A DNA stretch of 39,843 nucleotides from the IMG/VR virus record IMGVR_UViG_3300029893_000027; one strand, given 5' to 3'. The stretch comes from a virus. Made by a program: the position numbers and the translations under genes. Shown here piece after piece: positions 7,351 to 30,832 of this stretch (its first letter is position 1; the number at the start of each line of letters is the position of its first letter). The notes below the pieces were generated by a model. It saw only the letters and a program-made list of their open reading frames with translations, was not told the origin of the DNA and ran no database searches.

Positions 7351-7351
7351 G

Positions 7352-12220: not shown

Positions 12221-12302
12221 TATTTGGTGGTGTGAAAGAGAACTTGCAGAAAAATATAAAAAGAGGCGTGGATTTAGAGCGCCCTGTATGTAGGAGAAAT
12301 AA

Positions 12303-12542: not shown

Positions 12543-12557
12543 AAAAGGAGGTGAAGT

Positions 12558-13513: not shown

Positions 13514-13534
13514 TGGAAGAAAGAGAGGTGAGAA

Positions 13535-14224: not shown

Positions 14225-14256
14225 GATAACAAAACTGGTACACGACTACCTTTCAG

Positions 14257-15189: not shown

Positions 15190-15271
15190 TAATATGGGGT
15201 GTTAGTGGCACGGCACTTAACTGAACTTTACACTCCGTGCGGTGTAAAGGATACAGAAGGAGGAAATTGAA

Positions 15272-16015
15272 ATGGCAGACCCAAGAACAACAGTATGGGG
15301 TAAACAAGTCGGGCCAACAGTTGTCGGTCAAGACATTTATGAGGAAAGTAGCACGCCAAAATGTAGAATTGGTTTACTACTGCAGCTTGGTGACCGTTTC
15401 TTTCGCTATGCAAAGAATGGAGCTGTTGCATTAGCAAAAGGGAAGATGACACAAGGAGCAGTAGCAATTGCAAACCACAGGAATATAGTAGTTGCAGCTG
15501 CTGCACCTGCTGCTACAACAACAGTAACTGTCACTTTAGGTGCAACTGCAGTGGTAGCAAACCAATATGCAGATGGTTACTTGCACGTAAATAATGAAGC
15601 TGGAGAAGGCGTGACATATAGAATTAAGTCACACCCAGCTGCAGCTGCAAGTGCAAACCTCGTAGTTACACTATATGATGCACTTGAGACTGCACTTACA
15701 ACAACAAGCAGAGTGACGTTGACAAAGGGCAAGTATGATAGTGTGGTAATTGCACCAGCCGCTGGTTTAACAAGTGCAGCAACGGGAGTTCCTCTCATTA
15801 ATGTCGCCGCAGGCAACTTCTTCTGGATGCAGACAAAAGGCCCTGCAGCTGTTCTTACACAAGGAACAATTGTGATTGGGCAGAATGTTGGATTAGGTGG
15901 CACAGTTGATGGTGCTTGTGGCCCAGTAGGTGCAGTGACAACTGACGTCTGGGGTCGTGTTCTTCAAGTCAATGCAAGCACTGACTATAGCTTAATTGAC
16001 CTATCACTTGAATAA
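15272..16015 (+). CDS. Virion protein, possibly head decoration/cement (A/V/T-rich beta protein)
   Basis: Strong SD GAAGGAGG, immediately after the capsid gene. Motifs such as GDRFFRYAKNGAVALAKG and GYLHVNNEAGEG recall DUF2190-type decoration proteins. This is from memory and not verified. Confidence 0.45.
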   Translation: MADPRTTVWGKQVGPTVVGQDIYEESSTPKCRIGLLLQLGDRFFRYAKNGAVALAKGKMTQGAVAIANHRNIVVAAAAPAATTTVTVTLGATAVVANQYADGYLHVNNEAGEGVTYRIKSHPAAAASANLVVTLYDALETALTTTSRVTLTKGKYDSVVIAPAAGLTSAATGVPLINVAAGNFFWMQTKGPAAVLTQGTIVIGQNVGLGGTVDGACGPVGAVTTDVWGRVLQVNASTDYSLIDLSLE

Positions 16016-16102
16016 CACACTCAATGTGGGGTGCGCATACATTATCACGCACAACTTAACTTAGGTAAACGGCAAGTATCGGCACTAAGGAGGTGAAAAA
16101 AG

Positions 16103-16561
16103 ATGGCATTAACAGTTACACTCGACACACCTCACGCAGAGAGGATTAGTCGCAACTTGGGCATACTGATAGGAACAATTACCTTTGACAGTAGCTACCC
16201 AACTGGCGGTGAGCCACTCACACCAGCTATAACAGGTCAATTTATGACTCTACTTCGTATGACATTTGACCAAAGAGGTGGTTACCTTTTCGAGTTTGAT
16301 AGGGCAAACAAGAAAGTAAAAGTCCTACACCCAAGAGCAGCAATTGCAAGCACTCTTGCAGTTTCTACCCCAGCGCTTGCCCACGAAGCAGGTGCAACAA
16401 CAGTTACATCTACCGCTGCAACAATGCCCAGCCACGCAGCAGCATCTTGCACCATTTCTGGAGTGGCTGGTGTGGCAGCAGGTGCGGGTGCAGAAGTTCC
16501 CAATGGGACTAACTTAAGTGCGCTGACAGGTGTGAGTTTCATAGCAGTAGGGTTAATTTAA
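16103..16561 (+). CDS. Virion structural protein (unknown role)
   Basis: Strong SD AAGGAGGTGA in the head-module context, with an A/T/S-rich C-terminal half. Confidence 0.6.
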   Translation: MALTVTLDTPHAERISRNLGILIGTITFDSSYPTGGEPLTPAITGQFMTLLRMTFDQRGGYLFEFDRANKKVKVLHPRAAIASTLAVSTPALAHEAGATTVTSTAATMPSHAAASCTISGVAGVAAGAGAEVPNGTNLSALTGVSFIAVGLI

Positions 16562-16562
16562 T

Positions 16563-16961
16563 ATGCCTGCAAACAAAGAGTATATTGCAGTGCTTGAGCA
16601 CTATGGGAGGATGACAGGTGATTATGCACAGCTGGAACCTGTCGTCCTCCGTGACTTACAAGAAAATAAAGGTTTATTCAAAGATGTGAAATGGTCTGAT
16701 GTAGTGCCAGGCACTCAACTTTATGATGATATTGTTGATGCATACTGGGAAAGATTAGGCGACTTTGGGATTCCCGATGATGACTTTACTCGTGCTTTAT
16801 GGTGGTTAACACCTGGTAGATATGCAAGGACAGGTGGGGACATAGAAAAGATTGAGAGTAAGAGGATAAGAGAAATAATGAGAGGACGAGAGAAAAGGTT
16901 GCGTGAACACATCAACAAAACTGAAGGGACAGCAGGAGCAATTTTTGAGAGGATGAGATGA
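16563..16961 (+). CDS. Hypothetical protein (132 aa)
   Basis: Packed 1 nt after the upstream stop. Function unknown. Confidence 0.6.
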   Translation: MPANKEYIAVLEHYGRMTGDYAQLEPVVLRDLQENKGLFKDVKWSDVVPGTQLYDDIVDAYWERLGDFGIPDDDFTRALWWLTPGRYARTGGDIEKIESKRIREIMRGREKRLREHINKTEGTAGAIFERMR

Positions 16962-17069
16962 AGAAACGTCGCAATCTACGCCTGATGATACACTCATTAG
17001 ATTATTTAGATAGAGGGCTGCAATTGTTGAGACAAGCAATAAAAAGGGAAATGAGTGCAAGGAGGAAAG

Positions 17070-17750
17070 ATGACAAGGTCAGAGATAAGAACAGAAGTAA
17101 GAAGTAACATAAAGAGGACAACTGATGGCGTCCCTGATAGTAGAATAAACACTTGGATAAATTGGGGACAGGCGTTGATTGCTGATTGGCACACATACGA
17201 AGAGATGAGAAAGAACTACACAGCTGCAACAGTAAGTGCACAAAAAAGGTATGGTTTCCCCACACGGATGAAGGACGTTTACTCACTCACCTTGCAAGAT
17301 GGTGCATCTTCCAGAAAGTTGATATATGTGCATCCTCGTGAGTTCGACCAGAAAGTGCCCCGTCCAGAGCAAACAACCAAAGGACGTTCTGCATTCTACG
17401 TAGACTATGGCGTGAACTTTGAGTTGTATCGCATACCAGACAAAGCATACACTCTCAACTTGCGATGTTCTGTCTACCCAGCTGACCTTACTGCTGACAG
17501 CAGTGAAAGTACATTACTTAGGAAAGACCAATTGATTGTTGCATGTGCAACAATGTTTGGTTTTCTCTCCTTACGTGAGATAGAAGATGCAACATACTGG
17601 AAGAATGAAGTGGTGGCGCCGTTGTATTTGGCAAGTGTGGCAAGTGACCACAGCGCAGAAGATTGGGTACCGATTGCAAGAGGGTATGACACGAGAGTTG
17701 AAAGAGTAGGTGAATATTGGAGTAATCCTTTAGTAAAGGCGATGCCGTAA
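17070..17750 (+). CDS. Head-tail adaptor/connector-like protein (putative)
   Basis: Position between the head and fiber genes. The ATG at 17070 after AGGAGG is preferred over the track GTG at 17055. Confidence 0.45.
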   Translation: MTRSEIRTEVRSNIKRTTDGVPDSRINTWINWGQALIADWHTYEEMRKNYTAATVSAQKRYGFPTRMKDVYSLTLQDGASSRKLIYVHPREFDQKVPRPEQTTKGRSAFYVDYGVNFELYRIPDKAYTLNLRCSVYPADLTADSSESTLLRKDQLIVACATMFGFLSLREIEDATYWKNEVVAPLYLASVASDHSAEDWVPIARGYDTRVERVGEYWSNPLVKAMP

Positions 17751-17772
17751 TTTTTCGTATGTTCAATATAAA

Positions 17773-17994
17773 ATGAATTGGGAAGAACAAACACCAAACA
17801 CAACAAATTGGGTTGAGGTAGGACCTGAAGTAACGAGTCACACAGAAATAACACCAAATACACAAGTTTGGGATGAGACAATACCAAATATAAAGGTGTG
17901 GAATGAAGAGCCGACATTACTTCTTAATAACCAAGAGAATATACTAAATAACACAGAAGAGTGGACAAATGAAGGATTACCAAATTGGAGATAA
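17773..17994 (+). CDS. 73-aa Trp-repeat protein
   Basis: Contains internal repeats TPNTTNWVE, TPNTQVWDE, IPNIKVWNE and NTEEWTNE. No SD. Confidence 0.5.
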   Translation: MNWEEQTPNTTNWVEVGPEVTSHTEITPNTQVWDETIPNIKVWNEEPTLLLNNQENILNNTEEWTNEGLPNWR

Positions 17995-17997
17995 GAG

Positions 17998-18999
17998 ATG
18001 GCATTTGATAAATCACCATTAGGTCAGACAATCAAACATTTAACTGAACGCTTTAATCAACTTATTGATGATTTGCTTTCCACTACGAGTGGGAAAGGTG
18101 CATCACAAATTGGCATTGAAGATAACACAAGCAGATACACATCTACGAATGTAGAAGATGGATTGGCAGAAATTGCAGGTTCTGGTAGGACCACAGAGAC
18201 AGTCAAAGGAAACAAAGACCTGATTGGCGCAAATAAAACCACTTGCGACGATAGAAAAACAGAATTTGATACGCACAAAGCTGGAACTGCAAAAGCACAA
18301 CACACAGCTGGACTTGGTGCACACGCAGCAGACCACCAACCAGGCGGAACAGATGTTGTTTTAGAGAAAGCCACAGGCACAGATGTCAACACAGGCACAG
18401 ATAACACTAAATTCACCACTCCAAAAGCAATAGAAGATAGTAGATTATGGAGAAATCTTAGAGATGCAGATAAAGACACAACAGTTGACGTAGAAGAAAC
18501 TGCTGACGCTGATACCATCGTTGGAAAAGTAGCAGGAGTTGAGGCATTAAGATTTCATACTTCTGGAATTCTGGATTTACCGAAGCAGTCAGGATGTTTA
18601 GTTACAAATGGTGTAATTCAGGTTATACCATCTGGAGCTGATACAAAAGTAGTTTTAAATGGTAAAGAGTATGATACTCAAAACGAATTTGATGCAACTA
18701 CAAACTATAGATGGACAACTACAAAAGTAGGAAAGTATTTAGTTACGCTAAAAGTAAGATTAGAAACTACCGACGGGATGCCTTGGAGACTTTCACTGCA
18801 TAAAAATAGTGCAGCGCATGTCTATTTTTTCTCAATTCCAGGTGCTACTACAATAGAACATAGTTGTGGTTTCTCAATTCCGCTTCACCTTGGTGCAGGT
18901 GATTATCTTGAGATGTATGTTTACCAGACGACAGGGGCTAATAAAAATTTGTATGCGACGCTTTATAATTGCCATTTCTCAGTTACGAAACTATTTTAA
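17998..18999 (+). CDS. Tail fiber protein
   Basis: Fiber-like N-terminal motifs (GASQIGIEDN...NVEDGLAEIAG, KFTTPKAIEDS) and a beta-rich C-terminal domain. Confidence 0.65.
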   Translation: MAFDKSPLGQTIKHLTERFNQLIDDLLSTTSGKGASQIGIEDNTSRYTSTNVEDGLAEIAGSGRTTETVKGNKDLIGANKTTCDDRKTEFDTHKAGTAKAQHTAGLGAHAADHQPGGTDVVLEKATGTDVNTGTDNTKFTTPKAIEDSRLWRNLRDADKDTTVDVEETADADTIVGKVAGVEALRFHTSGILDLPKQSGCLVTNGVIQVIPSGADTKVVLNGKEYDTQNEFDATTNYRWTTTKVGKYLVTLKVRLETTDGMPWRLSLHKNSAAHVYFFSIPGATTIEHSCGFSIPLHLGAGDYLEMYVYQTTGANKNLYATLYNCHFSVTKLF

Positions 19000-19011
19000 T
19001 AAGAAGGTAAA

Positions 19012-19251
19012 ATGGGAGAATATAGAATTGTATTAACACCAGAAGAAGAAAAAGCATTGCTTACGGATATGATTTCAATTCAGGAGTGGATAGAGAATGC
19101 AATCAAAAACAAGGCCCGACAATGTATTGACGAAATCGTTGAGCGAAGTGGGTTGGGTAGTCAATATACACCACTTGAGAAAAAATTGGAAATTATTAAG
19201 TCTTTGAAGTTAGAAACTGCTGAAGAAAGAAGTAAAAAATCAACAATTTGA
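19012..19251 (+). CDS. Hypothetical protein (79 aa), possible fiber assembly factor by position
   Basis: SD AAGAAGGTAAA. It follows the fiber gene directly. Confidence 0.55.
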   Translation: MGEYRIVLTPEEEKALLTDMISIQEWIENAIKNKARQCIDEIVERSGLGSQYTPLEKKLEIIKSLKLETAEERSKKSTI

Positions 19252-19269
19252 AGTAGGAGGTGAAAAGCA

Positions 19270-19440
19270 ATGTTAGACAAAATCCGACAGGTGTTAGCTG
19301 GCAAAAAGACTTATCTCGTTGGTATCGTGACCATCATCGGCGTCTTGATTACTTGGGTAGAGACAGGCGAACTCAACTGGAACTTGTTGATGACCACAAT
19401 TTTAGCAATGACACTTAGAGCAGGCATTGCAAAAAAGTAA
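19270..19440 (+). CDS. 56-aa two-TM membrane protein (holin-like)
   Basis: Hand-translated: MLDKIRQVLAGKKTYLVGIVTIIGVLITWVETGELNWNLLMTTILAMTLRAGIAKK. SD GTAGGAGGTGAAAAGCA. Below the track cutoff. Confidence 0.55.
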   Translation: MLDKIRQVLAGKKTYLVGIVTIIGVLITWVETGELNWNLLMTTILAMTLRAGIAKK

Positions 19441-19444
19441 TCTT

Positions 19445-19511
19445 GGGTGCTTTCGTAGTAACCAAAGAACTATTAAGTGGTAGACTGAAAATTGGTTACT
19501 GTGAAACACCC
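19445..19511 (+). other. 67-nt extended imperfect hairpin in a 133-nt intergenic gap
   Basis: GGGTGCTTTC pairs with GAAA-CACCC, and AGTAACCAA pairs with TTGGTTACT, around a 26-nt apical loop. No tRNA-like T-arm and no U-tract. Confidence 0.5.
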
Positions 19512-19573
19512 GCAGGGACAAAATACTGGGGATTTAAATACTCTTTTAGGTGGTAGATGTCAGAAAATAAGAC

Positions 19574-19819
19574 ATGAACAAAGAAAAGGTAAATAATTTT
19601 GGTATTCTGTTTCGCTTCATTACTCCCATTTTGATAACTATTATGTTATATATGTTGACGATGATGCAAACAAACATCTCAACATTACAATCAGACATCA
19701 AGGAGATAAAAGAGCATTTCGTAAATCATTTAAAGGAACACAAACAAGTAGAAGTGTTGATGGAGAAACGTCTAACAAGAATAGAAACATTGCTAAATGC
19801 AATGGACAAAGGAAGGTGA
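19574..19819 (+). CDS. 81-aa N-terminal-TM plus coiled-coil protein
   Basis: TM segment FGILFRFITPILITIMLYMLTMM. The start overlaps (ATGA) a 6-codon upstream mini-ORF (19557-19577, MSENKT) that carries the SD AGGTGGT. Confidence 0.6.
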   Translation: MNKEKVNNFGILFRFITPILITIMLYMLTMMQTNISTLQSDIKEIKEHFVNHLKEHKQVEVLMEKRLTRIETLLNAMDKGR

Positions 19820-19822
19820 CAT

Positions 19823-21016
19823 ATGGCAGCAACAAGAGCTTGGGATGAAACTAAACCTGCAGGACCTGATTATGTTAGTGAAGGGGATGATGAAATACGA
19901 GCCACGAAGGTTGATATCAGAGAAAGGTTAGCACTTGAGCACATTTGGAATGTCAATGTTACTGATGATGGGTTGCACAAAGATGGTTCGGCAAGAATAC
20001 AATCAGGCACAGATGCAACCAAACCTGCTTCACCTAAACTAAATCAACTCTATTATGCTACTGACACATATAAGTTGTATCATTGTAAGACTGCAGGGAG
20101 CTGGACTGACATAACCGCAGAATTTGCAGGATTTGTTCGACTGAGCGGTGCTCAGACAATCGCAGATGTAAAGACATTTGATTCTATTCCAGTTTTACCT
20201 GCTACTAACCCAACAGCGGATAATGAAGCAAGTAGAAAGGCATATGTAGATAGTTATTTTCCAGTGGTTGAAGCAAACATTGGTGCTTCCGTAGTCTCCC
20301 AGACAAAACTTAAAACTACAACAGGAGAAGTATCAACGACTATGGATGGTGCAAATGACCGTTTTTGGGGCATTCATCATAGATTATCAGGAGGAACTTA
20401 TGCGCCACGAGTTGTTCTTTGCAGCGTTGTAGCTACGGTAGGGGAAAACTGTTTAGTTGTAACTTTGACCCTTCCAGGAGGAGAATATGGATTTTACCCA
20501 AATGGTTACACCTCAGGAACAAACTCATATTTCAAACAACGTTACATCACCACCTCAGGTAAAGACCATTGGATATTTTTATTGGTAGATAAAGAAACAA
20601 ACCAAATTATTAGTAGTTATCAAGCATTAGACCACCCTTGTGCTAATCAAAGTAGAACGACTGAATTAGATATACCCCATCCATTTGGGTCGTATAACCC
20701 AGAAAAGTATGAAGTAGTAGTTGTAGATAATGACATCCTTGCTCAATTAAAAACGAAATTAAATCGAAGAAACTCTTTATTGTCCCTAATAAATGAGCAA
20801 TGCTTAATTGATGATACTAAAAGACCAAAGTATGAACCAAGAGAGATAATAAAAATAAATGAGTATCCTTCAGAACCAATTGGTGAAACTATTGCAAGAA
20901 TTAAAACTCCTCAGTGGGCGAAAATAATGATAAACCAAGATGAAATAACCCTTGAACAAAGAATAGTAGAAAAGTTGCCAGATTATATGTTGTATAAGAA
21001 GATAATCTTAAAATAA
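19823..21016 (+). CDS. Tail fiber/receptor-binding protein (putative)
   Basis: The N-terminus (WDETKPAGPDYVSEGDDEIRATKVDIRERLALEH) resembles conserved fiber anchors. Also KTFDSIPVLP...ASRKAYVDS. Confidence 0.55.
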   Translation: MAATRAWDETKPAGPDYVSEGDDEIRATKVDIRERLALEHIWNVNVTDDGLHKDGSARIQSGTDATKPASPKLNQLYYATDTYKLYHCKTAGSWTDITAEFAGFVRLSGAQTIADVKTFDSIPVLPATNPTADNEASRKAYVDSYFPVVEANIGASVVSQTKLKTTTGEVSTTMDGANDRFWGIHHRLSGGTYAPRVVLCSVVATVGENCLVVTLTLPGGEYGFYPNGYTSGTNSYFKQRYITTSGKDHWIFLLVDKETNQIISSYQALDHPCANQSRTTELDIPHPFGSYNPEKYEVVVVDNDILAQLKTKLNRRNSLLSLINEQCLIDDTKRPKYEPREIIKINEYPSEPIGETIARIKTPQWAKIMINQDEITLEQRIVEKLPDYMLYKKIILK

Positions 21017-21017
21017 A

Positions 21018-22799
21018 ATGCCAACAAGACGAAGACAATACCACAAAATATATGCGCCAATCGAAGGTTTGAAGTATGACCTTGCATCAACACTAATCCC
21101 TGAAGCAAACACACCTGCTTGCAATGAAGTCGTATTCAGGGAAGGTAAAATAAGCAAGGCAAGGGGCACATCCATTTTTGCACAGACCAACACATACCCG
21201 TTGAATGGAACGGTAATGCATTTGGACCAGTTTTACAAAAGTGATGGGTCGGAAAAGTTGGTGTGCCACTCAATTAGAGATGTGTATTGTTATAATACAG
21301 TGACCAACAAATTTGACCTCCTCACATTGTGTTATACCACGGGCACAGTAGCTGTGACGAATGGAAGTGCTGTGGTGACTGGCACAGGCACTTCTTGGGT
21401 AACTGCGGGAATAAAGGTAGGGGATAAGTTTGGTGTTGGTAACACTGACCCTAAATTGATTAGTGTGTGGTATACAGTTCAAACCGTAGACAGCGAGACA
21501 CAAATAACATTGACTGCCACATACACAGAAGCAAGTGCAATAGGTCAATCATACTGCATACGTAGGTTGTTTACTGGCGATGAGGACCATGCTTATAGCA
21601 GTGAGACAATGAATGACCTGTACATCTTTTGCAACTACGTTGATAACATTTACAAGTGGGATATGACTGCTACAACAGTTTCTTTATTGGGTGGTGCATC
21701 CACTCATAAAGCAAAGAAGATACTTAAGTATGGTGAACGCCTTTGTCTGTTTCATGTAGTTGATGGAGGAACAGCATACCCACAAAGGGTGCGTTGGTCA
21801 GTAGTGGCAAACCCAGAGGATTGGACTGGCACAGGGAGCGGATATGTTGATTTAATTGGCGTACTTGGTGTTGACTTCATACAAGGTGCAGAAAAGATTG
21901 GAAATTATGTGGCGGTGTATGGTGAACGCACTATTGCATTGATGGAATACAAGGCAGATGTCACCGAACCATTTACTTTTGACGCACGCCTGTCTGGTGT
22001 TGGTTTGGCAGCTCCTCGTGCAGTAATTAACTTAGGTGAAGAACATGTTTTTCTTGGTTGGGATAATGTGTATAGTTATAAAGGTGGAAGGAGTGCTGAA
22101 GGAATAGCGAATGGGATAAGAGAAGAATTATTTAGACTTATAACTCCAGAATACATTTGCCGCTCCTTTATGCTATATGTGGAAGAGACAGAGGAAATAT
22201 ATTTGTTTGTGCCGATTGCTGGAAGTTCAATACCCAACGCTCTCTTCATATATAACTTAAAAAATGGGAGTTGGAGCAGAGGTTCTCGTTCTTTCACTGG
22301 GTGCGGTTATTATGAGACGAAGAGTGCACCTACTTGGAATGAGATGACTATGACTTGGGATAGTTGCACTATTAGATGGGACGACAGTGCACTGCTTGCA
22401 CTTGCTCCTCTCAATTTGTTTGGTGACACAAGTGGTCGTGTGTATAAAGGTGATGCATTGAAGCACAATTTGTCTGGCATAGCAATAGATGGTTGGTGGC
22501 AAACAAAAGACTTTCTGGTTGGCGACGGTTATAGAAGAGAATTGACAAACTGGATGGAACTTAATTTCGAAGCGTTTGGGAACAGCGTTGGTGTCTCATA
22601 CAGCACTGATTCTGGTGACACTTGGAGTCCAGAAAAGATATTTCCGCTGACAAATGAGTGGGCACTGCAAAACTATGATATGGAAGTGAACTCTCCGCAG
22701 ATAAGGTTTCGTTTTCGTAACAATGGAATGAATGAAACATTTGAATTGAGGATGCTGGAAGTTGGCTTTTTGCCTGCATCGGATAGAGGTGTAAGTTAA
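21018..22799 (+). CDS. Large tail structural protein (tubular/nozzle-like, beta-rich)
   Basis: Assigned from size (593 aa), position, and W/G/Y-rich beta character. No specific motif recognised. Confidence 0.45.
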   Translation: MPTRRRQYHKIYAPIEGLKYDLASTLIPEANTPACNEVVFREGKISKARGTSIFAQTNTYPLNGTVMHLDQFYKSDGSEKLVCHSIRDVYCYNTVTNKFDLLTLCYTTGTVAVTNGSAVVTGTGTSWVTAGIKVGDKFGVGNTDPKLISVWYTVQTVDSETQITLTATYTEASAIGQSYCIRRLFTGDEDHAYSSETMNDLYIFCNYVDNIYKWDMTATTVSLLGGASTHKAKKILKYGERLCLFHVVDGGTAYPQRVRWSVVANPEDWTGTGSGYVDLIGVLGVDFIQGAEKIGNYVAVYGERTIALMEYKADVTEPFTFDARLSGVGLAAPRAVINLGEEHVFLGWDNVYSYKGGRSAEGIANGIREELFRLITPEYICRSFMLYVEETEEIYLFVPIAGSSIPNALFIYNLKNGSWSRGSRSFTGCGYYETKSAPTWNEMTMTWDSCTIRWDDSALLALAPLNLFGDTSGRVYKGDALKHNLSGIAIDGWWQTKDFLVGDGYRRELTNWMELNFEAFGNSVGVSYSTDSGDTWSPEKIFPLTNEWALQNYDMEVNSPQIRFRFRNNGMNETFELRMLEVGFLPASDRGVS

Positions 22800-22804
22800 C
22801 TACA

Positions 22805-23107
22805 ATGAGAATATATTTGCCAAGTAAAGTAATGCTGGTACCTGACTTAATTCTGCCAGAAACACCAGAGGAGCAAAGAGATGAGTTGCAAAGATGGCTG
22901 GCAGAACTGTGTCATTCAATAGAAGAATACTTTAGAAAGGCATATCTTGATGTAAGTATGGGGACGAGTAGATTTAGGATAACTGCATCTGTGCCAACTA
23001 CAGGGGATTTAGAAGAGGGAGAAATTTTGTTGTATGACAACCAAATTGACACAAGACGAATATATACTAAAATGAATGGAATACTGAGATATGTAACACT
23101 TACATAA
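22805..23107 (+). CDS. Hypothetical virion-module protein (100 aa)
   Basis: ORF in the operon. No SD. Confidence 0.55.
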   Translation: MRIYLPSKVMLVPDLILPETPEEQRDELQRWLAELCHSIEEYFRKAYLDVSMGTSRFRITASVPTTGDLEEGEILLYDNQIDTRRIYTKMNGILRYVTLT

Positions 23108-23122
23108 ACAAAGGAGGTAAAG

Positions 23123-24100
23123 ATGCCATTACCAAAGTGGGTACTTCCAGCAGCAATAGGAGCACTTGGAGGATTATTAGGAAGGCGTGGAATACGTGGG
23201 AGACCAGGGGGAATTGAGCGTATGCCAATTTTAGCACCAGAACAACAACGAATACTGGCAAGACTTACACCATTTGTTGAAGAACGAATTGGGCGAGGAT
23301 TACCTGCGTGGGAAGGACCATGGATAGCGCCACCTTCACCAGAAGAAGAAATAGGACTTGGAAGACTTGGTGAATATTTACGTGCTGGTATTCCAGAAAT
23401 AACAGAATTTGGTTTAGGACGGTTCAGGGAAGCACTTGCTGGACTAACACCAGAAGAGACAGAAGCGTGGTGGCGTGCATACAGACAACCAATGTGGCAG
23501 AGAATGTGGGAAGAAGAGATAGTGCCTGGATTGAGAGAGGCAAGAGTTGCACCAGGCACATTGTATGGGACGCCGTATGTGACAGATGTAGAAAGAATGA
23601 TGGGAAGGTGGGCAGAAGCACAACAGGCAGAACTTGGTAGAGCAATAATGGAAGAAAGGGAAGCAGCGAGAGCTATGTTACCTTACGTGCCAGAAATGGC
23701 TGCACTTGTTGAAGAGGCACCACTTCGTAGGGCACGGGCAGCAATGGAGTTAGGTGCATTGCCTCGATTGTTGAGACAAGCGGAAATTGCTGCTCAATTT
23801 GAGGAGTTCAGACGAACAACACCAGAATTATCACCTGTGCTTGATTTAGCAATGAATTTACTGCGTTTACAGACACAAGCAGCATTTTATAGACCGTATC
23901 GACCATCTCCACTCGTGGAAATACTTGGTGCAATTGCACCTGGGGTTGGAGCATACTTGGGCGGGTTAGCAACTGATGGGGTTAGTAGATTAGCTAGTGA
24001 AATAGCTGGCCAAATAGGGCCTGCCCTTTCTCGTCGTACTAGAGACCCATTAAGACCTATTACCAGACATGAGATAGAAGCTATTTTGAGAGGAGAGTAA
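23123..24100 (+). CDS. Internal virion/ejection protein candidate (325 aa, R/E/A/P-rich)
   Basis: SD AAAGGAGGTAAAG, an N-terminal hydrophobic segment (WVLPAAIGALGGLLG), and a position before the giant protein. Confidence 0.5.
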   Translation: MPLPKWVLPAAIGALGGLLGRRGIRGRPGGIERMPILAPEQQRILARLTPFVEERIGRGLPAWEGPWIAPPSPEEEIGLGRLGEYLRAGIPEITEFGLGRFREALAGLTPEETEAWWRAYRQPMWQRMWEEEIVPGLREARVAPGTLYGTPYVTDVERMMGRWAEAQQAELGRAIMEEREAARAMLPYVPEMAALVEEAPLRRARAAMELGALPRLLRQAEIAAQFEEFRRTTPELSPVLDLAMNLLRLQTQAAFYRPYRPSPLVEILGAIAPGVGAYLGGLATDGVSRLASEIAGQIGPALSRRTRDPLRPITRHEIEAILRGE

Positions 24101-24104
24101 TTTA

Positions 24105-24127
24105 GTATTTTCAATTTTTGAAATTAC
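24105..24127. promoter_or_regulatory. Palindrome-family copy 2 (GTATTTTCAATTTTTGAAATTAC)
   Basis: 20 of 23 positions match the copy at 6635-6657, including an identical TTAGTATTTTCAAT stretch. It lies 5 nt after a stop codon and 18 nt before the homing-endonuclease ATG. Confidence 0.65.
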
Positions 24128-24144
24128 GAAAGTGAGGTGTAATT

Positions 24145-24636
24145 ATGGCAGAGTTATTTTCCCAATTTGATTTGGGGTGGTTAGTTGGAATGATTGAAGG
24201 TGAAGGTTGTTTGAGTTGTAAAGCTGGATATGATAAAAGAGATGATAGAACCAGAGTAATGCTGAGGGTAACTATATCAACATCGAGTGTTCCTCTCAGA
24301 GACAATATAATTAGAGTATACAACGGGATGGGAGTTGAATATAGTATTCACGTAACTAAACCTAAGACTTATATCGGGAGAGATGTCTATCATATAAATG
24401 TTCAAGCACATAAAAGTATTTTAAAAGTTCTTTTACCAATAGTCAATTATTTGTTAAGTGGAAAAAAACAAATTGCTCAATCTATGATTGATTACATCAA
24501 AAATAGATTAGACAAAGGTGGGAAAGAAAAATATGATGATGTAGATTATTATTTAGCTAACAAAATAAGAAGTTTATGTACTGAATACAACATAAAAAAG
24601 GGTGCTAAAATGGGAGGTGAAATATGGCAGGTTTAA
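24145..24636 (+). CDS. LAGLIDADG homing endonuclease (single-motif, free-standing)
   Basis: Motif WLVGMIEGEGCLS at residues 12-24, I-CreI-like size (163 aa), SD GTGAGGTG. Confidence 0.85.
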   Translation: MAELFSQFDLGWLVGMIEGEGCLSCKAGYDKRDDRTRVMLRVTISTSSVPLRDNIIRVYNGMGVEYSIHVTKPKTYIGRDVYHINVQAHKSILKVLLPIVNYLLSGKKQIAQSMIDYIKNRLDKGGKEKYDDVDYYLANKIRSLCTEYNIKKGAKMGGEIWQV

Positions 24637-25283
24637 CTTGGCTTGGTGTCTTACCAAGAGAAGATAGGTGGAGTTATTTAGCTGAAGCAATAAGAGAAGG
24701 ACTTGGAGCGTATATTGGTGCAAGGGAAAGAAGGGAACAGAGAGAATTGGAAAGAGCACGAATTAGACCGTGGGAAAGACAATTTGAATTAGAAGAGAGA
24801 AAAATTGCTGCAGAAGAAAGAAGAGAAACTGTACGTGCACTGCTGGAAAGCGATGAACAAGTATTTCGACGACTTCACGCAGAACTTGAAGCCATCGACT
24901 GGGACAAAAGACTGCCCTTCCTAAGAGAAAGAGCTCCTATGTTGGATGCAACATATATTGGCAGAGAGTGGCAAAGGCAATTTGGTGAACGTTTTAGTGA
25001 TATGTATATCAGAGCATACGAAGCTACTCAAGACCCTCCTAAAATAGGTTGGTGGCAACGCCTATTCGGAGGTGAGAGAGTTACGCCTCCACCGTTTCCA
25101 CCACCTGCACCAACAGCGCCTACAGTCACACCGCCCGCGCCAGCTGCAATCGCAGACTACTATGTACCACCACCAGCGCCAAGAAGAAGGAGGGGAAGAA
25201 TAAGAGTTAGACTTAAAGCCACAGGACAAACTGGCACAATCGAAGAACACGAATTTGACCCTGCAATTTATGAGAGGTTCTAA
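24624..25283 (+). CDS. Internal virion protein candidate (219 aa, R/E-rich with a Pro-rich tail)
   Basis: The SD GGGAGGTGAAAT lies inside the endonuclease 3' end. Contains a PPPFPPPAPTAPTVTPPAPA tract. Confidence 0.55.
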   Translation: MAGLTWLGVLPREDRWSYLAEAIREGLGAYIGARERREQRELERARIRPWERQFELEERKIAAEERRETVRALLESDEQVFRRLHAELEAIDWDKRLPFLRERAPMLDATYIGREWQRQFGERFSDMYIRAYEATQDPPKIGWWQRLFGGERVTPPPFPPPAPTAPTVTPPAPAAIADYYVPPPAPRRRRGRIRVRLKATGQTGTIEEHEFDPAIYERF

Positions 25284-28200
25284 TGCCATTTATACCTGAT
25301 AAAGAACAAAGACCAACGCCTTCTTTTGTGGCTGATGTCCCTCGCACTCCTGCTATTACTGGCGTAACTCCTTCTTTTGTTCCTGACGAACCACATAAAC
25401 CAACACCTTCTTTCATTGCTGATTTAACAATACCACTTTGGAGTAAAGCAACAGAAGGCTTTGTAGCAGGAGTAGGCGACTTACTGTCCACAAGCGGCAC
25501 AGTTTTAGGTTGGATGGGTGCAAAAAAGTTATCAGAAAAAAGTAGAGCTTTAGGTGTACAACTACGTACAAGATACATTCCACCAGAAAGACCAGAAGAA
25601 TTTAGTTGGAAAAGTGTATTAGACCCTGAATGGTGGGCTACTTCAGTATCCAGGGCTGTACCTTTTACTCTATCATTAGTGCCAGCTGCAATCCTTGGTG
25701 CTTATGGTGGAGTTAAGATGGCAACAATAGCAGGATTAGGTGCATTTGGGAAAACTGTCTTAGGTTCACTTGGTGGTGCAGCACTATCAAGACCAATTGA
25801 GTCGGCATTAGAGGCAGCAGGCGCACACGAGCAAATGATTGCAAGAGGAAGAACAGAACAGGAAGCTGAGAGGTCAGCCAACAAAGTTTTTTGGGACAAT
25901 ATGAAACTGGTAGGGTTAGATGCTGCTCAATTTATTATTGCCTTTGCTCCAATCAAAGGTTTCGGTCCAATATTCAAAGGTGCATTAAGTAGAAGAATAC
26001 TATCAGTCGGAAGAGTTGGTGCCAGAATTGGAGTAACAGGTGCAGTGGAAGCAGGCGAAGAAGGATATCAAGATATTATACAAAGGAGAGCAATTGGCGA
26101 GAAAGTTACTTTAGACCCGCAAATGTCCGAAGCAATGGCAATAGGAGCTATCTTTGGTGCTGGATTAGGTACAGCAGGAAGCGTCTATACCAGTTTAGTG
26201 CAGAAAATTAGGAGAAATATGCCACCAGGGATGACAATTGACCTTGAAAGAATTAAAGCTGAAGAACTAAGAAAAGGAATTCCTGAACAGCAAGCAGAAC
26301 TAAATGCACTTGACAGAATAGCCGAGACTGACGAAGGCAGGGTAGTTATTGAGTCAGCAGTTGAAGACCTAAAGACTAAAGCAAAAGCCGTAGAACCTAT
26401 ACCAGCAGATGAAGCAGAGGCATACGAGGCTTGGTTGAGAGAACGTATGCCAACCATACGGCCAGAGTTAGAAGTTCCTTTACATCCTACACCTCCACAC
26501 GTAATAGAAGAAGAACTTGCACAAGTTCCTGCACCTGAACCTTCAACCATTCCACCTACACCTGAACATATCAAACCTATCCCTGAACCAATTAGGAAAA
26601 TAACTGACTTCACACTCTCACCACACATTCCTATTTCTGTTACAGCCACTGACGCATTGGTCATTCTACGGACGCAAGACCCTGAAAAGATAAGAGATTT
26701 GGTGGGAAGAATAGAAAATGCTAAGACGACATACCCTACCTTAGTATCAGACTTCACTTTGCTGGCAGATAGCATCAAAGCATCTTTTCCTGAAGCATTC
26801 CTTACTTTGCACGACCGACTCGGTAACCCAATTTATCAGCATCTACAGTATGATGTAGCATACAGAGTGGGAGAAACCATGGTGTATGGCCCAATGAGCG
26901 GCAGAGATATTTTTTCAGCACATCAAACAGGTCGTATACCTGATGGTAGACCATTTTCATTCATCTACGCAGACCTCCGTCCTGCCCAAACACCATACCT
27001 TCCAGAGGTTGCCATTGCCGAACAAGAGATTGCAAAGAAAGCAGCAATTGAAGATGTGCAGAAAGAACCTGAACAAGAACTAATCAGTGGAGTTGGTGAG
27101 ACTGTCAATCCCACAGAAGCAACGATGGAAGCAGAGGTTGAAGACATCCTCTCAGGAAAGCCAGTTCCAACTATCACACGTGCCCAACAGAGGGCAATCT
27201 TCTTATATGCACAAAGAAAAGGATTAACTCCACGACAGATGAGTAGATTAAGAAAAGTTCTTACGGAAGCTACCACCTTCAGACTTGCTCCACTCGGAAG
27301 GGGAGAAGTTGTAATGACGAGAAAAGAGGCAGCAGATTTCATTCGTGCTATTCGTCATGTCGTCAAACCACCTTATAAACCACCAGTCATACCACGCACA
27401 GCACGAATGACACCAGAAGGCTTCTTCGAGTGGATTGCATCACTTCCAGATATTGGCATCACAAGACTTGGCCCAATCAGATACTGGACTGACACATACC
27501 AGGCAAAGACAGGCATACCCATTCGCACACAAATAGTCGAACCAGTGGAGAATGCTGACCAGCAAACAAAGGCGGCACGTATCTATTGGTTTGATAGAAT
27601 GAGAAAAGCATTTGGCGATACACTGCACCAATCCGAGTCACTAAAAATTCTTACTTCTTACTTAGACAACCCGTTGTCCGAAGACCCTACATCTGCTGAC
27701 GGCATCAAATTGGCGACTGAACTAAATCTAAGTGATGTTGAGTATGAGGCAGCAAAACGTCTGCGTGCAATGACCAAAGAGTTGTTTGACTACTTTGACT
27801 GGTTAGGCCCTGAAAAGTATGTGAAAGGCTATTGGTCTCGTATTCGACCAAGAGAAGGTTTTAGAGCACATTATCCTCGCTACGAGTATGTTCCCGACGA
27901 GCTAAGATGGTTTGCTGACCTCGAAAGAGCTGGAATTCTCTCACCAAAAGAAACCGATGCTTTCACTATCTTCAGCACATATCTCAATGCTGGCATCAGA
28001 AAGAAATTCTTTCAACCTGTCTTAGAAAAAATAAAACCCATTCGTGCACTACTTCCCCGAAACGTAAGTCAAGGCATAGATGCATACCTCCAAGAGAAAC
28101 TCTTTGGCGGCAAAAGAGGAATGATGCTGGCAGAAGCAACAATGGACAATATATTTAGGTCATTAAAAATAGAACTGCATCCAGAGACGAAAGATGCCTT

Positions 28201-29515
28201 CCGACATCTCTACTTCCTTTCCACATACGGAGGTGCATTGGCATACAGAATTATGCCTATCATCAGAAATTTGATAGTCCAGCCAATTGGAATGTTATTG
28301 CCAGAGGTAGGGCCAAGATGGTGGGCAAAAGGTGTAGAAGCAGTTGTCAAACCTGAGAGCTGGAGAAAAGCACGCAGAGAAGGATGGCTTCCATATATGG
28401 GTGTGCCATACGCAGAGATGATTGCATCCAAGTTAGAACTTGGCAAATTGACAGCACCTTTGGAAATATGGAGAAAAATTCTAAAAATAGGAATGATGCC
28501 CTATGGGCAGTTTGCCGATAGTGTGGGCAGAATAATGGGCATTGGTGCAGTGGAAGCACGTTTCAACCATTATCTTTCTCTATACAAAAAAGGGAAAATA
28601 AATTTTAAGACATTTGCCAGAGGTATTGATTTAGATGGAGCACCAATCACTTTGCAACCAGAAATAGAAAGATTAGTGAAGGAGGGGAGAGCAGATGAAG
28701 CATTGAGGTTGCAGACGAGGGAAGTAATTGATGGTATATTCTATCCATATCGTAGAGGAAGTGAGATACTTGTTGGTGTAAGTGCTGGCAAATACTTTGG
28801 ACAATTTGGTGTTTGGCCAACTGAATTTGCGTTCAATTTGGCCAGAAGGTGGATAGGTCGCGGTCAATTTGATAAGCTTGCATTGTTTGGAATTGTTGGA
28901 GCAATCATAGTAGGGACACTACGCAAATTAGGAGTCCACCCACGAAGATTTTATGCTTTAGATGCTATACTTAACCCTACCCTTGCACCACTTCCACAAC
29001 TCACCGTCTCTTCAATTGAATTAATGCAATCTCTCTACTATGGCAACCGAAGATTAATAGATAGAAACATCGGAAAAATGTTAAGCACATTACGCATTTT
29101 CCTCCCCGCTGGAATTGCTGTTAGTGAAGTAGCAGACTTCTGGAGGGCAGAAGCTGACAATTGGATGATTAGAGATAAAATCACTGGCAAGCCACTCTAT
29201 CAGTCTTCTCCCACCGAAGAGTTGATGAAGATGTTTGGGTTTACAACTGTGAAGGAGATGGAAGTGCGTCGTTTCTTAACTCAACGCAGAAATGTCGTTT
29301 ACACTGTGCAAAAATTAAATAGAAAAATAAAACAACTATACTTACAGAGAAGAGGAAGAGAGGCACGAGATTTAGATGACTGGAAGATTATGAAGTATAG
29401 CGAATTATATAAGAATGCGACAGGCACTGCTCTCAAAAGAATAACACCTGGAGAAGCATACCGATGGGAGAGAAAAAGAAGAAGAGAAATATATGAATCT
29501 CCTGCGTTTGAGTAA
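25283..29515 (+). CDS. Giant internal virion/DNA-ejection protein candidate (1410 aa)
   Basis: Assigned from size, hydrophobic segments, and position at the end of the tail module. The N-terminus carries a triple repeat: PTPSFVAD, VTPSFVPD, PTPSFIAD. No lysozyme or RNAP motif was recognised. Confidence 0.55.
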   Translation: MPFIPDKEQRPTPSFVADVPRTPAITGVTPSFVPDEPHKPTPSFIADLTIPLWSKATEGFVAGVGDLLSTSGTVLGWMGAKKLSEKSRALGVQLRTRYIPPERPEEFSWKSVLDPEWWATSVSRAVPFTLSLVPAAILGAYGGVKMATIAGLGAFGKTVLGSLGGAALSRPIESALEAAGAHEQMIARGRTEQEAERSANKVFWDNMKLVGLDAAQFIIAFAPIKGFGPIFKGALSRRILSVGRVGARIGVTGAVEAGEEGYQDIIQRRAIGEKVTLDPQMSEAMAIGAIFGAGLGTAGSVYTSLVQKIRRNMPPGMTIDLERIKAEELRKGIPEQQAELNALDRIAETDEGRVVIESAVEDLKTKAKAVEPIPADEAEAYEAWLRERMPTIRPELEVPLHPTPPHVIEEELAQVPAPEPSTIPPTPEHIKPIPEPIRKITDFTLSPHIPISVTATDALVILRTQDPEKIRDLVGRIENAKTTYPTLVSDFTLLADSIKASFPEAFLTLHDRLGNPIYQHLQYDVAYRVGETMVYGPMSGRDIFSAHQTGRIPDGRPFSFIYADLRPAQTPYLPEVAIAEQEIAKKAAIEDVQKEPEQELISGVGETVNPTEATMEAEVEDILSGKPVPTITRAQQRAIFLYAQRKGLTPRQMSRLRKVLTEATTFRLAPLGRGEVVMTRKEAADFIRAIRHVVKPPYKPPVIPRTARMTPEGFFEWIASLPDIGITRLGPIRYWTDTYQAKTGIPIRTQIVEPVENADQQTKAARIYWFDRMRKAFGDTLHQSESLKILTSYLDNPLSEDPTSADGIKLATELNLSDVEYEAAKRLRAMTKELFDYFDWLGPEKYVKGYWSRIRPREGFRAHYPRYEYVPDELRWFADLERAGILSPKETDAFTIFSTYLNAGIRKKFFQPVLEKIKPIRALLPRNVSQGIDAYLQEKLFGGKRGMMLAEATMDNIFRSLKIELHPETKDAFRHLYFLSTYGGALAYRIMPIIRNLIVQPIGMLLPEVGPRWWAKGVEAVVKPESWRKARREGWLPYMGVPYAEMIASKLELGKLTAPLEIWRKILKIGMMPYGQFADSVGRIMGIGAVEARFNHYLSLYKKGKINFKTFARGIDLDGAPITLQPEIERLVKEGRADEALRLQTREVIDGIFYPYRRGSEILVGVSAGKYFGQFGVWPTEFAFNLARRWIGRGQFDKLALFGIVGAIIVGTLRKLGVHPRRFYALDAILNPTLAPLPQLTVSSIELMQSLYYGNRRLIDRNIGKMLSTLRIFLPAGIAVSEVADFWRAEADNWMIRDKITGKPLYQSSPTEELMKMFGFTTVKEMEVRRFLTQRRNVVYTVQKLNRKIKQLYLQRRGREARDLDDWKIMKYSELYKNATGTALKRITPGEAYRWERKRRREIYESPAFE

Positions 29516-29533
29516 ATTATATAATAATTTCAA

Positions 29534-30832
29534 ATGAACGTCTTATTTGTTAGTATGAGTGGCGACTCACTCTCTCTCGCTGAGCGTGTGCAAAGAGAGG
29601 GACACAATGTGTTCTTCTACATATATGAAGAAAAGGCACAGAAAATTGGGGATGGAATAGTGCAGAAGCCAAAGTGTAAGTTGCCAATAATGACGAAGAA
29701 GACTCGTAAAGTAATTAAGGCGAATGTGAATGTGCTTTTGCGTGAAGTACAGCCTGATTTCTGTGTATTTGATATGGTGAAGATGGGAGAAGTTGCTGAC
29801 TGCATACGCACACAAAATATACCTGTATTTGGTGCAAGCAAGTGGGCTGATGTTGCTGAACTTGACCGTGCGTATGGATATAAGTTGATGAAGGCAACGG
29901 ACATACGCACTCCTCTCACACATATGTTTACTGCAGGACAACATGAAAAGGCAGCGGAGTTTGTGCAGAAGACGGGAAAAAGGTATGTGTATAAGCCGAG
30001 TGGGAATATTGAGTGTTCTCATACATATGTTGCAAAAGGAACAGAGGATATGATAGCGATGTTGCAACTTTGGCATAATGACAAGTGTGAGTTTGAGTTG
30101 CAGGAGTATGTAGAAGGAGTTGAGGTAAGTTGTGAAATTTGGTGGAATGGCATCAGCGCACATTTGCACAACTGGACGATGGAAGAGAAGAAGTTTATGA
30201 ATGACGATGTTGGGCCTGCGATGGGATGTGCAGGCAATGTGGTTGCTTTCTTACCTTCGAAAAGTAGATTGGTAAGAGAAGGTGTGGGAAAGATGGAACG
30301 CTTACTGAAGAAAGTACAATATCGTGGCCCAATTGATTTGAACTCAATTGTGAATAAAGATGGTTTGTTTGGGTTAGAGTTTACAGTGAGATTTGGATAT
30401 GATGCTGTGCAAACATTGCTCGAACTTTACCGTGGCTCTCTTACACAACTATTATTTGCAATAGCGACAGGAAGTAATGAACATGGAGAATATCACAGTG
30501 GATATGCAATTGGCGTTCGTGTCAGTATACCGCCTTATCCTCACACTGCAGAAAATGTCCCTATAGGAGTGCCAGTGATTGGAACTAATAGTGAGAACTT
30601 AAAACATATTTGGTGGGGTGATGTGCGAGCGGGAAGCAAATATTATGAGAGTGCAGGTAGTGATGGTAATTTAGGTGTGGTGACTGCAAGAGGGTCGGAT
30701 GTGAGGGAATGTCGTCGTCGTGTTTATAGGACAATAAATAATTTAATTATACCACAAGCGCAGTATCGAACTGACATAGGGGAGAGGGTAAATGAAGATG
30801 TTAAAAGGTTAAAAATGTGGGGTTACTTATAA
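29534..30832 (+). CDS. ATP-grasp ligase, PurD (glycinamide ribonucleotide synthetase)-like but divergent
   Basis: Collinear by eye with E. coli PurD: VFGASKWADVAELDRAYGYKLM, YVYKPSG, LQEYVEGVEVSCE, EEKKFMNDDVGPAMGCAGN, GLEFTVRFGYDAVQ and GVVTARGSDVRECRRRVY. It lacks the N-terminal GGREHA loop and the GDPE motif. Confidence 0.7.
   Translation: MNVLFVSMSGDSLSLAERVQREGHNVFFYIYEEKAQKIGDGIVQKPKCKLPIMTKKTRKVIKANVNVLLREVQPDFCVFDMVKMGEVADCIRTQNIPVFGASKWADVAELDRAYGYKLMKATDIRTPLTHMFTAGQHEKAAEFVQKTGKRYVYKPSGNIECSHTYVAKGTEDMIAMLQLWHNDKCEFELQEYVEGVEVSCEIWWNGISAHLHNWTMEEKKFMNDDVGPAMGCAGNVVAFLPSKSRLVREGVGKMERLLKKVQYRGPIDLNSIVNKDGLFGLEFTVRFGYDAVQTLLELYRGSLTQLLFAIATGSNEHGEYHSGYAIGVRVSIPPYPHTAENVPIGVPVIGTNSENLKHIWWGDVRAGSKYYESAGSDGNLGVVTARGSDVRECRRRVYRTINNLIIPQAQYRTDIGERVNEDVKRLKMWGYL

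Follow-up and report, generated by a model that had tools for sequence, protein, structure and literature searches.

Glycinamide ribonucleotide (GAR) synthetase, or PurD (EC 6.3.4.13; TIGR00877; GARS_N/GARS_A/GARS_C; PDB 1GSO, 2YW2 and 2QK4), is the closest described relative of the product of a late gene in a virus from IMG/VR (record IMGVR_UViG_3300029893_000027), of which we analysed a stretch of 39,843 nucleotides (nt), hereafter the window. The two proteins have the same N-B-A-C domain topology, are collinear over their whole length and share the ATP lysine, the ribose glutamate, the lysine of DHKR, the Mg glutamate, the acyl-phosphate arginine and the YRxDIG motif. They differ in that their identity is about 20%, the window gene lies in a phage late operon rather than a pur operon, and a quarter of its phage family is catalytically dead. 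The only study of 'PurD-like' proteins that we found in the literature, Brown et al. (2011), concluded that 'extra PurD-like' haloarchaeal proteins lacking the aspartate of GDPE are 'not actual' GAR synthetases (PMC3261824). The published phage ATP-grasp reports that we found concern unrelated LUZ24-type, RNA-ligase or R2K proteins. Here we find that the window gene product is a PurD-fold protein but not a GAR synthetase. The phage clade that contains it is, as far as our literature and database searches go, an undescribed PurD-type variant inside the known ATP-grasp superfamily, with an unusual biology: it is near-core in an assembly operon, holds inteins and has repeatedly turned into pseudoenzymes.

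An initial annotation, made from the DNA letters without database searches, had described the 432-amino-acid (aa) product as collinear with PurD across all domains, and profile and structure searches agree with this. Residues 1-419 aligned to positions 1-423 of the 425-position TIGR00877 profile (E-value 1e-25), and residues 86-419 matched PurDs in the PDB by sequence (E-value 1e-18). Structure prediction, which the annotation had proposed as a check, confirmed the fold: the AlphaFold2 model (predicted local distance difference test score, pLDDT, 94.4; predicted template-modelling score, pTM, 0.91) is a four-domain N-B-A-C PurD structure. The top 15 Foldseek matches in the PDB were all GAR synthetases (template-modelling score, TM, 0.72-0.78; E-values to 4e-32), followed by biotin carboxylases at a TM of about 0.6. 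Among the predicted viral structures of BFVD there was nothing comparable, with a best TM of 0.46. Despite the shared fold, the window protein scored 90.2 bits against TIGR00877, far from the 288-bit equivalog cutoff, and 27.2 against Pfam GARS_C, below the gathering score of 34.8. No PHROG family matched it, and no PADLOC model matched either the phage protein or four cellular relatives. Neither the phage clade nor its cellular sister family, introduced below, is described in the literature that we searched or in PHROGs, NCBIfam, Pfam (weak GARS matches aside), PADLOC or BFVD.

We aligned 178 phage family members with three canonical PurDs using MAFFT and mapped residue roles from human GAR synthetase (GARS; PMC2978367) and Aquifex PurD (PMC8880213). 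Both motif pairs quoted in the initial annotation aligned as stated, window EEKKFMNDDVGPAMGCAGN opposite PurD DHKR..GPNTGGMGA and window LEFTVRFGYDAVQ opposite PurD IEFNCRFGDPETQ. The ATP-grasp core (K154, Q190, E197, K219, D268, E282 and R286) is all present in the window protein and is 99-100% conserved in 173 active-like homologs (K154, E197 and K219 100%, Q190 and D268 99%); E217 and N270 are likewise at 100% in this class. The Mg glutamate E282 and the acyl-phosphate arginine R286 are retained, while ExN has become ExT (T in 160/178), and the invariant N270 may stand in for the lost asparagine. Loss of the ATP-binding residues, a possibility that the annotation had raised against itself, was not observed in the window copy, where the residues of ATP-grasp chemistry are intact. 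The window copy is apparently catalytically competent.

The substrate contacts are another matter, and the active site is not that of a canonical PurD. As the annotation had noticed, the GGREHA loop and the GDPE motif are gone. PurD GNGGREHA reads SMSGDSLS in the window (in the family S7 176/178, G10 171/178 and D for R11 135/178), and the PROSITE pattern PS00184, R[LF]GDPE, fails on window RFGYDA (Y 167/178 and A 154/178). The residues that hold the amino group of glycine in PurD (D293/E295 in E. coli, D295/E297 in human GARS) are Y289 and A291 family-wide. PurD EGSK is ELDR throughout the family (E109-x-D-R112), the Gly-rich B-loop GLAAGKG over the gamma-phosphate is GNIECSH in the window (family consensus GN..T..), and the arginine of the C-domain GGR is N379 (V, D or N in the family). 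Phosphate-binding arginines have thus given way to an aspartate and a neutral residue, and aromatic residues (W203, Y289) have been gained. The nearly invariant replacement set consists of D11, E109-x-D-R112, W203, N270, T284 and Y289-D290, and the window protein carries the full clade signature: S7..G10, E109-x-D-R112, W203, D268-x-N270, E282-x-T284-x-R286-F-G-Y289 and R412-x-D414. Judging from the alignment, every PurD contact for phosphoribosylamine (PRA; R11, E12 and the C-domain arginine) and for the glycine amino group is replaced. Glycine, which the annotation had put forward as the ligated acid, is an unlikely acyl substrate considering that the residues holding it have changed across the family. 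Because the TIGR00877 score is far below the cutoff and the PRA and glycine contacts are replaced, we reject the PurD label.

Phage relatives of the window protein numbered 1,253 in a word-indexed search and 1,195 cluster representatives (50% identity) at E <= 1e-30 in an exhaustive search, mostly on contigs of 35-50 kb. We called open reading frames (ORFs) in about 90 loci, clustered their products and compared the arrangements. This survey of homolog neighbourhoods, also suggested in the initial annotation, placed the PurD-like gene inside the late operon in all arrangements but found it at three different positions. In the window-type arrangement, a giant ORF (892-1670 aa) is followed by the PurD-like gene and then by the convergent replication module. 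The majority of the distant members (32-42% identity) lie in the order helix-turn-helix small-terminase-like gene, large terminase (TerL), PurD-like gene, in some cases an ORF of about 190 aa, portal, small ORF, scaffold-like gene and major head protein. The TerL, PurD-like and portal order occurred in about 45 loci, and both portal and capsid have their homologs in the window. In the third arrangement, a DUF1353 gene precedes the PurD-like gene, which is followed by clusters c85, c18 (homologous to window 23123-24100) and c86 and a 1,700-1,840-aa ORF. In many loci the PurD-like gene overlaps the preceding gene by 4 nt. DUF1353 was considered as an obligatory partner and rejected, since it adjoins the gene in two arrangement types and is absent from the window.

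To avoid circularity, prevalence was measured on loci anchored on the portal or DUF3987, in which all ORFs were searched with a hidden Markov model (HMM) of the family. The gene was found in 64 of the 71 evaluable portal-anchored loci and in 23/27 evaluable DUF3987-anchored loci (about 89%). Seven portal-anchored loci truly lacked it, TerL being followed there by the portal or small ORFs. The gene is therefore near-core for its phage lineage yet dispensable, with about 11% of relatives lacking it. Among about 170 related phage loci, it never lay in a replication or nucleotide module, and none of these loci contained pur genes. The window has the setting typical of the clade, namely the late operon of phages of about 40-50 kb with a UDG::PolA and DUF3987 module. 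A tblastn search of 50,697 phage records returned one distant (29%) unannotated match, MW202796.1, the other matches being bacterial purD in contaminated records. The MW202796.1 homolog (42140-43441; L008 12001-13332) lies where the structural region ends, after two ORFs of about 500 aa and a GNAT acetyltransferase. In the closest cultured capsid relative, Bradyrhizobium phage ppBjS10J-1, TerL abuts the portal with no PurD-like gene between them. Three relatives at 45% identity (L003-L005; ~20028-21314, - strand) have early-region radical SAM and transketolase-pyrimidine-binding-domain genes that are absent from the window.

We next compared the catalytic residues across the phage clade by aligning 241 distinct homologs to the family HMM and scoring the pentad K154/E197/K219/E282/R286. 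The B domain was present and the pentad intact in 173 homologs, and a single pentad residue was changed in another seven. In 45, the B (lid) domain (window residues ~127-192) was cleanly excised and the pentad degenerate, whereas 16 kept the B domain but had lost catalytic residues. Based on these residues, about 25% of the phage clade are natural pseudoenzymes that should be unable to do ATP-grasp chemistry. About 25 polar positions that are 93-100% conserved in the active-like class fall together to 10-30% in the degenerate class (15-16% for E217 and K219), whereas the fold core (G206, L258, G265, W203, G227, P334, P336, R412 and D414) stays at 76-97%. The model of a lid-less member, P0055, had a pLDDT of 93.1 and still matched PurD best (TM 0.73-0.77), with PylC next.

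The degenerate forms occupy the same slots as the active ones, after the giant ORF in L006 and L007 and before the portal in L103-L152. Their ratios of nonsynonymous to synonymous substitution rates (dN/dS) were 0.066-0.15 in the least saturated pairs (L164/L165 0.14 at a dS of 0.71, L170/L172 0.13 and L131/L141 0.07), indistinguishable from the 0.12-0.15 of active-like pairs. The pseudoenzyme forms thus remain under purifying selection as strong as that on active forms. Parsimony on a tree built without the B-domain columns required at least six independent state switches.

Six representatives of 747-870 aa (P0212, P0218, P0231, P0241, P0252 and P0257) hold Hint and LAGLIDADG inteins. In P0212 the intein directly follows ...GFIDLN (window N270), lying between IDLN and C, and in P0231 it follows ...LEFTPR (window R286), between EFTPR and C. 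Inteins typically occupy conserved catalytic motifs of proteins that a phage cannot lose. The positions seen here are consistent with a functional role of the D268-N270 and R286 motifs and with strong DNA-level conservation of both in phages that circulate together. Other members have disordered acidic or Pro-rich tails. Fusions that could serve as Rosetta stones were sought among the long members and discarded, as these turned out to be inteins or disordered tails. A single case, P0176 (529 aa), has an extension (residues ~420-529) that starts VGVDLDGTLA, like the DxDGT of HAD phosphatases. This tail had no PDB or Pfam match and no detectable homolog, and it could be a real fusion or gene-calling read-through.

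A cellular sister family was found by scanning species-representative genomes with family-specific motifs from eight sequences. Full-length relatives at 30-34% identity were present in Acidobacteriota, Gemmatimonadota, Patescibacteria, Omnitrophota, Planctomycetota, Gammaproteobacteria, Altiarchaeota, other archaea and the isolate Parvularcula maris, and the family extends to genomes of the candidate phyla radiation (CPR) and DPANN. De novo purine synthesis is generally missing from CPR and DPANN genomes. More than 6,800 proteins belong to the family at E <= 1e-20, 60-70% identical across phyla. Their names are automatic and PurD-type only (for example 'phosphoribosylglycinamide synthetase C domain-containing protein'), with TIGR00877 scores of about 110 bits. 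Mean identities were 32% between phage and cellular proteins, 20% between phage proteins and PurD, and 22% between cellular proteins and PurD. In a neighbor-joining tree, the phage clade (including two phage-type copies binned in metagenome-assembled genomes) and the cellular clade were each monophyletic and jointly apart from PurD, with the window protein inside the phage clade. The haloarchaeal proteins of Brown et al. probably belong to the cellular family.

The cellular proteins (e.g. Parvularcula maris L257 8001-9269 and Hyphobacterium P0268) share with the phage clade ExT, RFGY, E-x-D-R, Q190, D268-x-N270, S7, length and domain order, D268 and N270 being invariant in the cellular family. 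Unlike the phage clade, they are chromosomal and stand-alone, and they have a partly Gly-containing SGEAQNxK loop, EHK, F203 and Y-P-T in place of Y-D-A. No pseudoenzyme forms were seen among 80 cellular members sampled. The operon neighbours of the cellular gene are variable and unconserved. In Moranbacteria (L210, L236 and L240; L240 6450-9272) it is directly preceded, on its upstream side, by genes for an agmatinase-family protein and a SAM methyltransferase. In Altiarchaeota (L204 and L234; L204 7986-12039) a pyruvoyl arginine decarboxylase (PdaD) and an agmatinase lie directly downstream. This link to polyamine genes was found in 2 of about 25 cellular lineages sampled, and five further contexts lacked it; by a rough estimate, two agmatinase-type coincidences are unlikely to arise by chance. 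A UDG-family gene was seen near the cellular gene in several CPR and some Chlorobi genomes.

The features of the window are listed in Table 1. The initial annotation had called the PurD-like gene the last of the virion operon, and it does close an unbroken run of + strand genes, its stop codon and that of the convergent methylase gene being 2 nt apart (30832-30835). No terminator-like hairpin was found at these stops, and the spacer upstream of the gene contains no Shine-Dalgarno sequence, promoter or terminator. Because promoter and terminator are both lacking there, the gene is predicted to be transcribed together with the late genes. The missing Shine-Dalgarno sequence is perhaps a sign of a host in which translation does not depend on it. 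Beyond the methylase, the replication module contains a DUF3987-type protein, the UDG::exonuclease::PolA fusion, a DUF669 protein, an AAA_24 ATPase and a PD-(D/E)XK nuclease, so that the fusion and methylase reported in the annotation are both there. Its observation that the genome has no other purine-pathway gene also held among the scanned window ORFs (all but a few below 165 aa), leaving a housekeeping or auxiliary PurD role unsupported.

Table 1. Position of the PurD-like gene, its motifs and neighbouring genes in the window (39,843 nt).
Feature	Position	Strand	Basis or remark
PurD-fold ATP-grasp gene, active-like member of the phage clade	29534..30832	+	ATG start, 432 aa; fold, catalytic pentad and family-specific residues all present
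N-domain loop S7-M-S-G10-D11, in place of PurD G-N-G-G-R (PRA/phosphate)	29552..29566	+	Alignment
B (lid) domain, residues ~127-192, including K154 (29993-29995)	29912..30109	+	Deletion mapping in 22 short forms
Hinge Q190-E-Y-V-E-G-V-E197, adenine/ribose-binding	30101..30124	+	Aligned to PurD EEFLDGEE
E217-E-K219-K220, counterpart of PurD DHKR (phosphate/Mg lysine)	30182..30193	+	Alignment
D268-L-N270, derived acidic/amide pair on the strand before the catalytic strand	30335..30343	+	Absent from canonical PurD (LYAGLM)
Catalytic strand E282-F-T284-V-R286-F-G-Y289-D290-A291	30377..30406	+	Alignment
C-domain R412-T-D414 (YRxDIG, common with PurD)	30767..30775	+	98-99% in active-like, 78% in degenerate class
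Late/morphogenesis operon ending with the PurD-like gene	4655..30832	+	PHROG assignments, ORF map
TerL (large terminase)	5127-6635	+	PHROG
Portal	10269-12023	+	PHROG
Major head protein	14257-15189	+	PHROG
Tail fibre-like genes	19823-22799	+	PHROG
Giant 1410-aa ORF directly upstream of the PurD-like gene	25283..29515	+	ORF call; positional partner in the window-type arrangement
AT-rich 18-nt spacer, giant ORF stop to ATG of the PurD-like gene	29516..29533	+	Leader TAAATTATATAATAATTTCAA-ATG
SPPY N6/N4 DNA methylase, convergent with the PurD-like gene	30835-31938	-	Family search
UDG::exonuclease::PolA fusion	34416-36668	-	Family search

The giant 1410-aa ORF is presumed to encode an internal or ejected virion protein. 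It had zero Pfam, PHROG or PDB matches, and giant ORFs at the same position in relatives showed no BLAST similarity to one another or to it. In relatives, the giant ORF and the PurD-like ORF often overlap by 4 nt. One giant ORF, that of L073, matched phrog_9854 and phrog_14770. The N-terminus of the window ORF (25283-25430) carries the motif ..TPSF[VI]xD.. in three tandem copies (PTPSFVADVP / VTPSFVPDEP / PTPSFIADLT), followed by Gly-rich hydrophobic segments with Kyte-Doolittle peaks at about residues 126-145 and 1195-1219 of the protein. Between terminase and portal, the variable slot that holds the PurD-like gene in most relatives, the window has instead a 548-aa right-handed beta-helix protein (8197-9843, + strand; Pfam Beta_helix/DUF5123) that resembles a tailspike or depolymerase. 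The major head protein gene is closely preceded by a 229-aa ORF (13535-14224, + strand), which has weak LAGLIDADG similarity (I-MsoI, E-value 5e-5) and may be a free-standing homing endonuclease within the head module. A 130-aa ORF (37553-37945, - strand) gave a sub-threshold match (E-value 5.5e-5; 23.8 against a cutoff of 27.1 bits) to PBECR2, a phage Barnase/EndoU/ColicinE5-D/RelE-like nuclease domain.

What the PurD-like protein does can be weighed against these observations. We favour, tentatively and at somewhat less than even chances, a carboxylate-amine ligase that is expressed late, acts on a substrate other than that of PurD and, in addition, has a binding or assembly role independent of catalysis. 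Late in infection, the enzyme would activate a carboxylate with ATP as an acyl-phosphate and ligate it to a non-phosphorylated amine. The amine would be free of phosphate because Asp and a neutral residue stand where PurD has two phosphate-binding arginines, and aromatics have been gained. The protein would bind a partner that the morphogenesis module produces: the giant internal protein, for example, or the portal/packaging complex, or some other intermediate of assembly. Active versions would modify this partner covalently or spend ATP on it, while dead versions would only bind or chaperone it. A virion protein, one of the targets that the annotation had suggested, is a conceivable substrate. 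Purifying selection has preserved dead, lid-less copies in the slot of the active ones, and so binding rather than catalysis is likely to make up part of the role. A morphogenesis product would be the most economical partner, because the gene lies between terminase and portal or beside internal-protein genes.

Several observations pull the other way. No PHROG family includes the protein, and among the 50,697 phage records there is no cultured phage that has both a relative and a virion proteome. Accessory 'cargo' genes classically settle at the TerL/portal junction and where the late operon ends, and absence from about 11% of relatives means that the gene is not essential for particle architecture. 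The adjacent giant ORFs share no similarity, their C-termini are unconserved and we found no conserved substrate motif in them. Within the window protein itself, the asparagine of ExN is a threonine, the predicted competence of the enzyme is read from conservation, and the pocket is drawn from alignment columns rather than from model coordinates. A more specific proposal, which we consider doubtful, is that the phage and cellular families together make up a branch of PurD-fold amide ligases that has so far gone unrecognised and acts on a non-purine substrate. The phage enzyme would have been recruited to head assembly and packaging, serving there both as a catalyst and, where catalysis was repeatedly lost, as a pure binding or assembly factor. 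The sole contextual hint to the substrate of such a branch is an agmatine- or polyamine-type amine.

That same hint bears on an alternative without any physical virion role, in which the protein is late cargo, a small-molecule amide ligase whose donor is a carboxylate and whose acceptor is a free amine, for instance agmatine, putrescine or some other polyamine. The conjugate might, for example, act as counter-ion to the DNA during packaging, or it might change host metabolism. The replacement of arginines by acidic or neutral residues and the gain of aromatics (D11, W203, Y289, D290) are as in amine-binding pockets, and the cellular sister stands beside agmatinase-type genes in two independent lineages from two domains. 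A position that shifts, or a gene that is sometimes missing, is expected of cargo, and in most relatives the gene sits between the packaging genes terminase and portal. The scarcity of the polyamine link among the cellular lineages, the lack of any polyamine genes seen in phage loci, and dead copies kept by selection, which are hard to explain unless they bind the same molecule, make this explanation unlikely. Another candidate role is that of a host-directed effector, possibly packaged and ejected with the giant internal protein, which would bind or modify a host protein so as to take over the infection or protect it, and whose dead versions would be binders or inhibitors of the same target. 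Enzymes and pseudoenzymes coexist typically in conflict proteins, the gene adjoins and is translationally coupled to giant ORFs resembling ejected internal or polyvalent proteins, and the acidic or Pro-rich disordered tails of some members might direct targeting or packaging. However, most of the family adjoins terminase and portal rather than ejection genes, PADLOC gave no defence or anti-defence match, and dN/dS is low and uniform, unlike that of arms-race proteins. We consider an effector quite improbable.

The initial annotation had linked the gene, speculatively, to DNA modification, and attachment of an amino acid, or of some other acid, to a modified base that bears an amine would be compatible in principle with the chemistry. 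Late post-replicative DNA modifiers such as Mu Mom exist, and the UDG-family genes near the cellular sister in some CPR and Chlorobi genomes fit the idea. The location data do not: the gene stays outside the replication and nucleotide modules in all of the about 170 loci, and the roughly 11% of relatives without it keep the same polymerase and methylase module. No hydroxymethylase, kinase or transferase/aminotransferase partner appeared among the scanned window ORFs (all but some small ones), and the retention of dead copies would go unexplained, so that we regard DNA hypermodification as very improbable. With some probability left to none of these readings, the slimmest chance of all falls to an authentic GAR synthetase, encoded by an auxiliary metabolic gene to raise purine synthesis in the host. 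No characterised family is closer to the protein, by sequence or by fold, than PurD; relatives are labelled 'phosphoribosylamine--glycine ligase' in their sources, and virome surveys count viral purD among auxiliary metabolic genes (PMC11097641, PMC12043954). Against this stand the failed TIGR00877 cutoff and the replaced PRA and glycine contacts, among them the lost aspartate of R[LF]GDPE, the criterion by which Brown et al. rejected their extra PurD-like proteins (PMC3261824). Neither purF nor another pur gene was found. PRA decays with a half-life of seconds, and its channelling has been proposed (PMC2978367). Moreover, a quarter of the family is catalytically dead, and the sister family occurs in CPR and DPANN genomes.

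These results have consequences for annotation. Thousands of phage and cellular proteins are automatically labelled 'phosphoribosylamine--glycine ligase', and for this PurD-like family the label is almost certainly wrong. The virome surveys cited above count viral 'purD' as a purine auxiliary metabolic gene, a count that may or may not include members of the phage PurD-like clade. The near-universal presence of an ATP-dependent ligase in the assembly operon of podovirus-like phages, a widespread and uncultured lineage, would point to an unrecognised ATP-requiring step or covalent modification in assembly or packaging or, alternatively, to a new late-stage metabolic intervention. The series of active, lid-less and absent forms in one genomic slot, with at least six losses of catalysis under selection, provides a clean system for the transition from enzyme to pseudoenzyme. 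The cellular sister is among the more conserved uncharacterised enzyme families that we encountered, and the substrate of either family would probably solve both. If recruitment to head assembly, which we hold doubtful, is nevertheless true, a metabolic-enzyme fold has turned into a morphogenetic protein.

A precedent for the binding role that we favour is Cdc123, an ATP-grasp protein that chaperones the assembly of eIF2 (PMC8844851, PMC12860950). As proposed here, an ATP-grasp fold binds a protein partner and promotes the assembly of a complex, but the likeness is a functional analogy only. Cdc123 belongs to the R2K ATP-grasp clade, is eukaryotic, has no GARS-type N and C domains and shows no sequence kinship to the window protein beyond the superfamily. 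For the catalytic role, RimK, the tubulin-tyrosine ligases, PylC and the graspetide macrocyclases likewise carry out ATP-dependent carboxylate-amine ligation on a protein, peptide or amino-acid side chain. A modification of the giant ORF C-terminus in the manner of RimK or the tubulin-tyrosine ligases was considered and rejected, the C-termini of the adjacent giant ORFs being basic and unconserved, with no shared BLAST similarity. These ligases differ from the phage protein in not being PurD-type, and the phage gene has no adjacent conserved acidic C-terminal tail or precursor peptide.

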